Assembly: GCF_029227855.1 (NCBI RefSeq)
Contig: NZ_CP074356.1
Strand: one strand, 5' to 3'
DNA: 64,000 bases
Source: Escherichia coli
GTDB lineage: Bacteria; Pseudomonadota; Gammaproteobacteria; Enterobacterales; Enterobacteriaceae
The translations under genes and the position numbers were made by a program. Within the stretch, counting starts at the first letter, position 1. Every line of letters starts with the position of its first letter. Shown here one piece after another: positions 21,430-21,892 of this stretch. The notes beneath the pieces were generated by a model. That model was not told the origin of the DNA, ran no database searches, and saw only the letters and a program-made list of their open reading frames with translations.

Positions 21430-21513
21430 TAAAAAAACCTGCTGGTGAGGCAGGTTCTTTTATTTACTATTTTCAGGCCCAACACCGCAGCCTGTGCAAC
21501 ATCGTGTTCCAAC
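21430..21513 (-). ncRNA. Putative ~84-nt sRNA (candidate antitoxin RNA) ending at a bidirectional terminator
   Basis: Predicted from promoter TTGCAA-N17-TATAAT (reverse strand, 21548-21520) and hairpin acctgc/gcaggt with flanking A7/T-run (21430-21462); first 19 nt complementary to 21495-21513 and, with one mismatch, to 21661-21679. Confidence 0.3.
21495..21513. repeat. 19-nt direct repeat copy R1 (tgcaacatcgtgttccaac)
   Basis: Recurs 166 bp downstream with one substitution. Confidence 0.7.
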
Positions 21514-21519
21514 GAACGA

Positions 21520-21570
21520 ATTATAACCATCGGTGGACCCCGTTGCAATTAAGATAATGAGATTTATAAT
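21520..21570. promoter_or_regulatory. Back-to-back sigma70-like promoters sharing a palindromic -35 (TTGCAA at 21543-21548)
   Basis: + strand TTGCAA-N16-TATAAT (-10 at 21565-21570); - strand TTGCAA-N17-TATAAT (-10 at 21525-21520); read directly, + strand part confirmed against a track ORF. Confidence 0.4.
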
Positions 21571-21660
21571 CCAGACGGTTGGGACGTTGCGCCGGATCGG
21601 ACCAATTTTAAGTCCTGGCTACCGGACGGGTGGTGCTGCAGGTGGTGCCCTGATCCGGAG

Positions 21661-21679
21661 TGCAACATCGTGGTCCAAC
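21661..21679. repeat. 19-nt direct repeat copy R2 (tgcaacatcgtggtccaac) in the leader of the small peptide ORF
   Basis: 18/19 identical to R1; lies 73 nt upstream of the ATG at 21752. Confidence 0.7.
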
Positions 21680-21751
21680 ATACGTAAACCAGTATCGACA
21701 GGCAGTGTAAGGGTAAGGTGCTGGTGTTGCGCTCCTTAATAAGGAGAGCGG

Positions 21752-21841
21752 ATGGACACGCTGACACAAAAGTTAACCGTGCTCATTGCCGTACTGGAGC
21801 TATTAGTGGCTCTGTTACGGTTGATTGATTTGTTGAAGTAA
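21752..21841 (+). CDS. Unannotated 29-aa amphipathic peptide (MDTLTQKLTVLIAVLELLVALLRLIDLLK), candidate type I toxin
   Basis: ATG with AAGGAG 5 nt upstream; TAA stop; not in ORF track (<60 aa); followed by intrinsic terminator. Confidence 0.45.
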   Translation: MDTLTQKLTVLIAVLELLVALLRLIDLLK

Positions 21842-21864
21842 TGGGCAAATTGAAACGCATCTAA

Positions 21865-21892
21865 GGGGGAATACCGTTTCCCCCTTTAATAA
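21865..21892 (+). terminator. Intrinsic terminator after the small ORF (ggggga-ataccgtt-tccccc then TTTAATAAAGCTATTTTT)
   Basis: 6-bp GC stem plus T-rich tail read directly; also lies just past the convergent yehK stop. Confidence 0.5.

Follow-up and report, generated by a model that had tools for sequence, protein, structure and literature searches.

The closest described system to the locus analysed here is zor-orz, which has been characterised in Escherichia coli in a series of studies (Fozo 2010, PMC2887945; Wen 2014, PMC3919570, and 2017, PMC5397157; mSystems 2024, PMC11264685). Fozo et al. (2010) described a tandem pair of 29-aa ORFs (z3289 and z3290) lying between yehI and yehL in EDL933, and the encoded peptides were toxic (PMC2887945). 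The sRNA OrzO rescues cells from zorO in a manner that needs RNase III and does not need Hfq, with the first 18 nt of the sRNA acting (PMC3919570). Specificity is set by the three nucleotides of V1 (+9 to +11), which read GAA in OrzO and ACG in OrzP (PMC3919570). The repression tests in these papers are of OrzO on zorO from EDL933, not of an OrzP-type pair (PMC3919570). Wen et al. (2017) reported a 174-nt leader in which the RBS (+164 to +169) lies in a stem, and a natural Δ28 form that is translated better (PMC5397157). The EAP region (+73 to +102) is exposed by processing and was proposed as a ribosome standby site; OrzO binds the 3' end of this region and blocks translation (PMC5397157). 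Published zor transcripts are approximately 280 and 310 nt long and Orz approximately 85 nt, with the RNA data coming from EDL933 and MG1655.

The gap between yehL and yehK in the window (the whole 64-kb stretch of E. coli DNA that was analysed) almost certainly holds the zor-orz type I toxin-antitoxin system as one intact copy. All of the sequence-level features that define zor-orz are present in this unit, its chromosomal position from yehL to yehK/yehI agrees with the published one between yehI/yehK and yehL in E. coli O157:H7 (PMC2887945), and no sequence evidence against the identity was found. The locus is already known, having been described in 2010 at the same position in O157:H7 EDL933. 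An earlier note on this DNA had read the gap as a type I toxin-antitoxin module with IstR-1/tisB-like geometry, had implied that the module was new, and had proposed a peptide comparison, a genome survey and a duplex calculation for the predicted RNA pair. The module itself was borne out by the OrzO-P match in Rfam, the ZorO-identical peptide and the published toxicity and repression (PMC3919570), and the geometry by the divergent promoters, the long leader and the short 5' antisense site far upstream of the RBS. The implied novelty did not survive, as zor-orz has been in print since 2010.

With the RefSeq start of yehL at 21319 on the minus strand and the stop of yehK at 21895, the gap covers 21320-21894, which is the 575 bp given in the earlier note. 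A consensus scan placed two promoters in it, in the positions and with the common palindromic -35 element that had been claimed. The zor promoter (21543-21570, plus strand) consists of the -35 TTGCAA, a 16-nt spacer and the -10 TATAAT, and the orz promoter (21548-21520, minus strand) uses the same TTGCAA (21548-21543) followed by a 17-nt spacer and the -10 TATAAT (21525-21520); each agrees with the consensus at 10 of 12 positions. At least 99% of zor/orz loci have these hexamers, and the divergent TTGCAA/TATAAT elements of both genes, together with the RBS AAGGAG, are those listed for zor-orz (PMC11264685, Table 3). The number of promoter-like sites in 21000-22300 (exactly two, with 2.3 expected) is not above chance, and the distinctive aspect of the pair is its back-to-back layout with 10/12 matches each. 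A pattern search found no LexA box (CTG-N10-CAG) in 21386-21894, in agreement with the earlier reading.

The OrzP-type antitoxin sRNA gene occupies 21431-21513 on the minus strand, approximately 83 nt from a putative +1 G at 21513 to the U-run, which is close both to the ~84-nt RNA that had been predicted from about 21513 to a U-run hairpin and to the published length (PMC2887945). The minus-strand RNA matched the OrzO-P RNA antitoxin family of Rfam (RF02083) with 101.3 bits against a gathering score of 60 (E 4.6e-17), over 21431-21506 and the full model (1-76), and the match was recovered in a scan of the whole window as well. Its V1 (+9 to +11) is ACG, the OrzP type, and its 5' antisense (seed) region, 21494-21513 on the minus strand, pairs with 21660-21679 in the zor leader. 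The gene ends in an intrinsic terminator hairpin (21436-21456, minus strand) and then UUUUUUU (21437-21431). A 19-nt inverted repeat at 21424-21442 and 21450-21468 forms a hairpin between an A-run and a T-run, which looks like a bidirectional terminator. Sub-threshold Rfam matches to Thr_leader, Trp_leader, BTnc005 and a plus-strand OrzO-P all fell on this hairpin and were dismissed.

The zor toxin ORF (21752-21841, plus strand) encodes a 29-aa peptide, MDTLTQKLTVLIAVLELLVALLRLIDLLK, and has the SD AAGGAG at 21741-21746, 5 nt before the ATG, both as previously noted. In a public protein collection the peptide has an exact match, "Small toxic protein ZorO" (ZORO_ECO57, UniProt); the described 29-aa Zor variants are ZorO, ZorP (T3S) and ZorQ (A20S) (PMC11264685). 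Residues 20-24, ALLRL, match the published toxic core (PMC8309996). A scan of the 29-aa peptide against NCBIfam returned no family at E <= 10. The likeness to DinQ that the earlier note had put at about 8/21 was upheld with a slightly better figure of 10/19 (best ungapped local alignment, MG1655 DinQ); the identities lie over the helix (LIA.LEL..LL), and the N-terminal IDKAI of the DinQ signature IDKAIIVL...LELIR is absent. Alignment of ZorO with TisB gave a local score of 43 with 7/17 identities (shuffle p 0.0085), which reflects Leu-rich composition. Downstream of the ORF, the predicted fold contains a zor mRNA terminator hairpin (21863-21890, plus strand; AAGGGGGAA-TACCGT-TTCCCCCTT; stem 21863-21871 / 21878-21886). 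The hairpin of the previously claimed terminator was thus found, but its T tail is weak and the consensus scan did not call it. Counting ~310 nt from the +1 leads to ~21887, which fits the published transcript of that length (PMC3919570).

When the +1 of zor is placed at 21578 via the published geometry, the RBS at +164 to +169, the ATG at +175 and the Orz site at +83 to +102 all take their published values, and the 5' UTR would be 174 nt long (21578-21751, plus strand; PMC5397157). The first 28 nt of the leader (21578-21605), which are removed by processing in the published system (zorO Δ28, PMC5397157), form predicted base pairs with the EAP region when the full-length RNA is folded to its MFE structure. 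The EAP region lies at 21650-21679 with coordinates transferred from PMC5397157, and it includes the conserved motif GGAGTG (21657-21662; PMC11264685). An anti-SD, GTTGCGCTCC (21726-21735), and the SD at 21741-21746 form a predicted RBS-sequestering hairpin (21726-21746, plus strand), with a probability of CUCC:GGAG pairing of 0.97 in the predicted full-length fold; published probing likewise places the RBS in a stem (PMC5397157).

A 20-nt direct repeat with one mismatch (21494-21513 / 21660-21679) is the sole such pair in the window at up to three mismatches, and therefore the first 20 nt of Orz pair with 21660-21679 of the leader, 73-92 nt upstream of the ATG. Taken to its full extent (21494-21518 / 21660-21684), it is also the only direct repeat of the gap. 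The complementarity consists of 6 bp, one A/G mismatch at +7 and 13 bp, written 6(1)13, so that both the pairing with a leader repeat and the distance of 73 nt from the start codon in the earlier note stand. The pairs thus number 19 and are discontinuous; repression has been reported to require 15 or more pairs if continuous and 17 or more if discontinuous (PMC3919570). The duplex energy of the 25-nt 5' end of Orz was -34.8 kcal/mol against -20.0 +/- 2.7 for shuffled controls, and none of 2000 shuffles reached it. The 25-nt end and the shuffles were used in place of the full-length Orz-zor duplex (80 nt), which is an artefact of ignoring intramolecular structure. The position of a mismatch can matter, since an OrzO point mutant carrying a single mismatch, at +9, did not repress (PMC3919570); the mismatch in the window sits at +7, where the natural P pair of O157 also has one.

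The gap of the O157-like strain used for comparison is 1240 bp long and contains two units. Its yehL-proximal unit combines the Orz V1 ACG with the T3S peptide and is zorP/orzP, and the yehK-proximal unit combines V1 GAA with the ZorO peptide. The window shares with zorP-orzP/zorO-orzO of O157:H7 EDL933 the site, the divergent promoters, the 174-nt leader geometry, the RBS, the 29-aa ORF and the terminators, but has a single copy where O157:H7 has a tandem pair. Over 21431-21887 the unit is 96.3% identical to the P copy and 89.5% identical to the O copy. Seed and target are identical to those of the P copy, the natural +7 mismatch included, whereas the peptide is identical to that of O157 zorO. 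The unit is P-like in the orz body, seed and target, and O-like in codon 3 (Thr), part of the early leader and the terminator (loop). Judged by its sequence, the single copy is a P/O mosaic, which would fit recombination between tandem copies. Two of the 83 nt of its Orz, at positions 27 and 34, differ from both O157 OrzP and K-12 OrzPmg and do not fall in the pairing region, and the sRNA of a K-12-type locus (strain DH5a) is 83/83 identical to O157 OrzP. Compared with the orphan orz-only locus of K-12 MG1655 (OrzPmg), the site and promoters are the same and 81/83 nt of the sRNA are identical, but the K-12-type locus ends approximately 31 nt into the zor leader, without target site or toxin ORF, where the window has the complete pair. 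The 509-bp query 21386-21894 is identical to strain M217, while the flanking 6.5 kb is not.

Seed and leader target both differ between the O and P alleles, and complementarity is kept in each. A pattern scan that took one genome per species found a zor-like locus with the peptide MDTLTQKLIVLIAVLELLLALLRLIDLLK in Superficieibacter electus. The leader target there, GCGCGACAATACAAACTCAG, is a 20-mer unrelated in sequence to the E. coli target, and it is repeated perfectly in a divergent orz-like gene, beside the same terminator type. Together, the O/P differences and the S. electus 20-mer therefore indicate that the interaction is conserved through changes in both partners. The scan gave 23 loci, about half of which came from unrelated phyla, had neither the small ORF nor the family blocks and were discarded; a rough estimate of ~11 chance hits is consistent with this proportion.

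In an E. coli genome collection, 5232 of 5426 genomes had some match to the query and 3392 (~63%) had the full locus, defined as at least 80% coverage of 21386-21894. About a third of complete E. coli genomes were orz-only, and those of K-12 type cover query positions 1-223, which comprise orz, both promoters and roughly the first 31 nt of the leader. These frequencies agree with the 2024 survey (n=2,212), in which 25% had one copy and 42% two (67% full), ~30% had orz only and 3% had none (PMC11264685). MG1655 itself belongs to the orz-only strains and expresses the orphan sRNA OrzPmg (PMC11264685). Of the four genomes inspected, three had no RefSeq feature in the gap; the remaining one has, at the yehK position, a frameshifted pseudogene labelled "hypothetical protein" that reaches slightly into the gap, and neither name, zor or orz, was found in any of the four. 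Because RefSeq/PGAP lacks zor-orz annotation in the E. coli inspected, the locus will keep looking new to annotation-based scans.

The literature treats zor-orz and dinQ as separate families, and the 2024 survey reported a 71-74% match of the zor leader to plasmid dinQ leaders and stated that no evolutionary relationship was proposed (PMC11264685). Collinear alignment of the 180 nt preceding the zor start with the same region of MG1655 dinQ extends up to the SD and scores 25, against 8.8 +/- 1.3 for dinucleotide shuffles (z = 12.8), and none of 1000 shuffles reached it. Similarity of the 5' UTR to dinQ, the mark of dql genes (PMC5066626), is thus a property of the zor leader too. The shared blocks are AAGTCCTGG, ACGGGTGGTGC, GGAGTG, GACAGGCAGTG, GTAAG and CTCC..GGAG, which are also present in a dinQ-like gene of an IncX1 plasmid and in the dql genes of Hafnia and Citrobacter. 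From this alignment, the zor leader is very probably homologous to dinQ/dql leaders, a closer relationship than published accounts give. Kristiansen et al. (2016) found that in full-length dinQ RNA sequence 1 is paired with sequence 2, that processing lets sequence 2 pair instead with the anti-SD (sequence 3), which releases the SD, and that binding of AgrB to sequence 2 closes the SD hairpin again (PMC5066626). Sequence 2 of dinQ (G94-G106) aligns with zor 21654-21666 (UCCGGAGUGCAAC) and sequence 3 (U167-U178) with the zor anti-SD, and the stretch bound by Orz takes in seven nucleotides at the 3' end of the zor sequence-2 element.

By analogy with the O157:H7 work, the published mechanism most likely applies to the locus in the window. 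ZorO would insert in the inner membrane, depolarise it and arrest growth when made, as the O157:H7 alleles do. The full-length leader would hide the RBS in a hairpin and also hide the upstream EAP region, and loss of the first 28 nt would expose the EAP region and raise translation, as in the O157:H7 experiments. RNase III dependence and the translational block by Orz would carry over from EDL933, and the OrzP-type sRNA should repress the mosaic zor allele because its 6(1)13 pairing reaches the threshold of at least 17 discontinuous pairs. An alternative is that the module is a decaying remnant, with a peptide gene that is unexpressed or non-toxic and with Orz as its sole functional part, perhaps acting on other targets, as in K-12-like orz-only strains. 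Persistence of orz without zor is seen in about a third of E. coli, which keep only orz and ~30 nt from the start of the zor leader (PMC11264685), and yehL and yehM are pseudogenes in M217, whose intergenic region equals that of the window. However, the two promoters and the two terminator hairpins are intact, as are the RBS, the 29-codon ORF and the pairing site, the peptide matches toxic ZorO at every residue, and the ORFs of O, P and the window differ by three synonymous changes and one conservative change (T3S), which makes decay very improbable. Even less credible is an undescribed member of the TisB/IstR-1 or DinQ/AgrB families, that is, an SOS-induced toxin, a candidate refuted by the ZorO and OrzP identity. 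The peptide does equal TisB in length (29 aa), its Leu-rich helix shares the 10/19 identity with DinQ and the sRNA is divergent, but the gap has no LexA box, OrzO-P was the sole Rfam match, with IstR giving none at E <= 1, and the locus carries the name and the characterisation of zor-orz (PMC2887945). Membership in the TisB/IstR-1 family is rejected since LexA box and IstR match are absent and the peptide similarity is at the level of composition; the zor-orz of the window is a functional analogue of TisB/IstR-1 and no member of its family.

A third alternative leaves the identity as zor-orz intact and concerns how translation is controlled. It is unlikely, given the evidence below, that the locus works by a dinQ-type switch instead of, or besides, ribosome standby. 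Under such a scheme the SD might be released after 5' processing, when the conserved GGAGUGCAAC (21657-21666) would pair with GUUGCGCUCC (21726-21735), the anti-SD, a step that is doubtful, and Orz bound at 21660-21679 could conceivably, with no better prospects, pull the element away so that the SD hairpin closes, as AgrB does on dinQ. The zor and dinQ leaders are collinear with sequences 2 and 3 aligned to the zor elements, and 2:3 pairing of 8-10 bp is found in nine of nine lineages with compensatory changes. Variable-position 2:3 pairs numbered 5.11 in cognate and 3.52 in non-cognate combinations (permutation 0.0007), in a set that is small (nine lineages), phylogenetically related and anchored by hand. 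These pairs were counted on segments anchored at GGAG and CTCC, a choice that leans towards structure; the anchored segments replaced a tool-made alignment in which the anti-SD was shifted by one column in two of the sequences. For the Δ28 ensemble of the window allele the predicted P(2:3) is 0.83, with P(unpaired) of the SD rising from 0.07 to 0.44, but the values for Δ28 of O157 zorO and zorP are 0.00 and 0.06, so the prediction is allele-dependent. Published Δ82 and GAG->CTC phenotypes fit standby and switch alike (PMC5397157, PMC11264685), whereas lead and RNase T1 probing of EDL933 zorO shows the RBS within a stem whether the RNA is full-length or Δ28, and the EAP region single-stranded after processing (PMC5397157). 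As the O157 alleles do not favour 2:3 pairing and probing finds the RBS paired after processing (PMC5397157), the switch is rated a minority possibility. We tentatively suggest that zor-orz and dinQ-agrB/dql may be one ancient enterobacterial toxin-leader family in which GGAGUG of the zor EAP region would be the homologue of dinQ sequence 2, an anti-anti-SD, with a processing-dependent 2:3 / 3:4 switch, reversed by Orz, in P-type zor alleles at least, and not standby alone; for operation of that switch in vivo the odds are low.

A complete type I toxin-antitoxin module can thus be recovered by a reader from raw sequence. The mechanism, distribution and copy-number variation of zor-orz are all published, and the module as a finding adds nothing new; what remains of value is the gap in annotation and the relationship of the zor and dinQ leaders. 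The authors of the zor studies compare the arrangement with tisB-istR and shoB-ohsC (PMC2887945, PMC5397157). With tisB-istR-1 the window shares a 29-aa membrane-depolarising helix (the activity of zor being that reported for EDL933), a divergent sRNA whose 5' end acts on a site approximately 100 nt upstream of the RBS, activation of the mRNA by 5' processing and a proposed ribosome standby. The two differ in that tisB is SOS (LexA) controlled and the window gap has no LexA box; istR-1 and Orz have no significant sequence relationship, and the similarity of the zor and tisB leaders is marginal (z = 5.0). The shoB-ohsC system is alike in its divergent arrangement, its short antisense site in a long leader and its small hydrophobic toxin, and unlike in that this toxin has 26 aa; the zor and shoB leaders showed no meaningful similarity (z = 2.5). 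DinQ has 27 aa and an N-terminus different from that of ZorO, dinQ is LexA-regulated, which the locus in the window, lacking the box, does not resemble, the AgrB duplex is ~34 nt against 19-20 nt for Orz, and the sRNA terminators of dinQ and zor resemble each other weakly. In dinQ-agrAB/dql, which occurs in Enterobacteriaceae and on IncX1 plasmids, the divergent sRNA, the long processed leader and the target far upstream of the RBS are those of zor-orz, and the leader homology between the two, small and testable as it is, could reconcile the standby-site and anti-anti-SD-switch models of toxin translation.

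The zor ORF, encoding the 29-aa toxin, and the gene for its antitoxin sRNA, orz, were both left unannotated by RefSeq/PGAP in all four E. coli genomes inspected at the yehL-yehK gap (L001, L002, L003 and L004; window 21386-21894). This differs from the dinQ-like ORFs on plasmids, which carry the DinQ annotation. On one side of the gap, yehL is represented in the window by two overlapping minus-strand ORFs (20864-21385 and 20242-20892), and this split (20242-21385, minus strand) points to a frameshift. The intergenic region of strain M217 is identical to that of the window, and RefSeq records a frameshift in that strain's yehL and an internal stop in the adjacent yehM.

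The single unit of the window (21431-21887) resembles zorP/orzP of E. coli O157:H7 in the Orz seed, its target and most of the leader. Its terminator loop is zorO-like, as are codon 3 and some early-leader positions (21593-21608). The unit is a mosaic, and the presence of P-like and O-like parts in one unit suggests recombination between tandem copies. A zor-like locus was also found beyond Escherichia/Shigella, in Superficieibacter electus (L010, 8300-8700), encoding a peptide with 2 substitutions relative to ZorO among its 29 residues. Its orz-like gene scores below the Rfam threshold, its 20-nt seed and target match each other perfectly and are unlike those of E. coli, and its neighborhood does not look like yehK-yehL.

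The Orz terminator region (window 21423-21465) aligned with the 3′ ends of agrA and agrB in MG1655 (L005) at 72-75% identity over 36-43 nt (E 0.2-0.5), a weak likeness that could reflect just terminator-like sequence. Four further Rfam matches in the window, all above threshold, were the Hfq-binding sRNA STnc490 (34200-34323, minus), CyaR/RyeE (61561-61646, minus), a Peptidase-S11 RNA motif (975-1055, plus) and a TPP riboswitch (45278-45374, plus).

In the zor leader, the anti-SD GTTGCGCTCC (21726-21735) is complementary over 10 bp to GGAGTGCAAC (21657-21666), with a pairing energy of -21.5 kcal/mol compared to -10.3 for the SD hairpin. Compensatory changes in this helix were seen (n = 9 lineages). 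Folding predicted it for the window allele only; no 2:3-type helix was predicted when the O157 alleles were folded. By sequence, this pairing is very probably the homolog of the dinQ 2:3 switch helix.

The zor 5′ UTR (window 21610-21747) was compared with the leaders of MG1655 dinQ (L005) and of the dinQ-like gene of an IncX1 plasmid (L008), giving z = 12.8 against shuffles for dinQ. The literature handles zor and dinQ/dql as two distinct families; their 5′ UTRs are very probably homologous, with AAGTCCTGG, ACGGGTGGTGC, GGAGTG, GACAGGCAGTG, GTAAG and a CTCC..GGAG hairpin as the blocks that dinQ/dql leaders have in common with zor.
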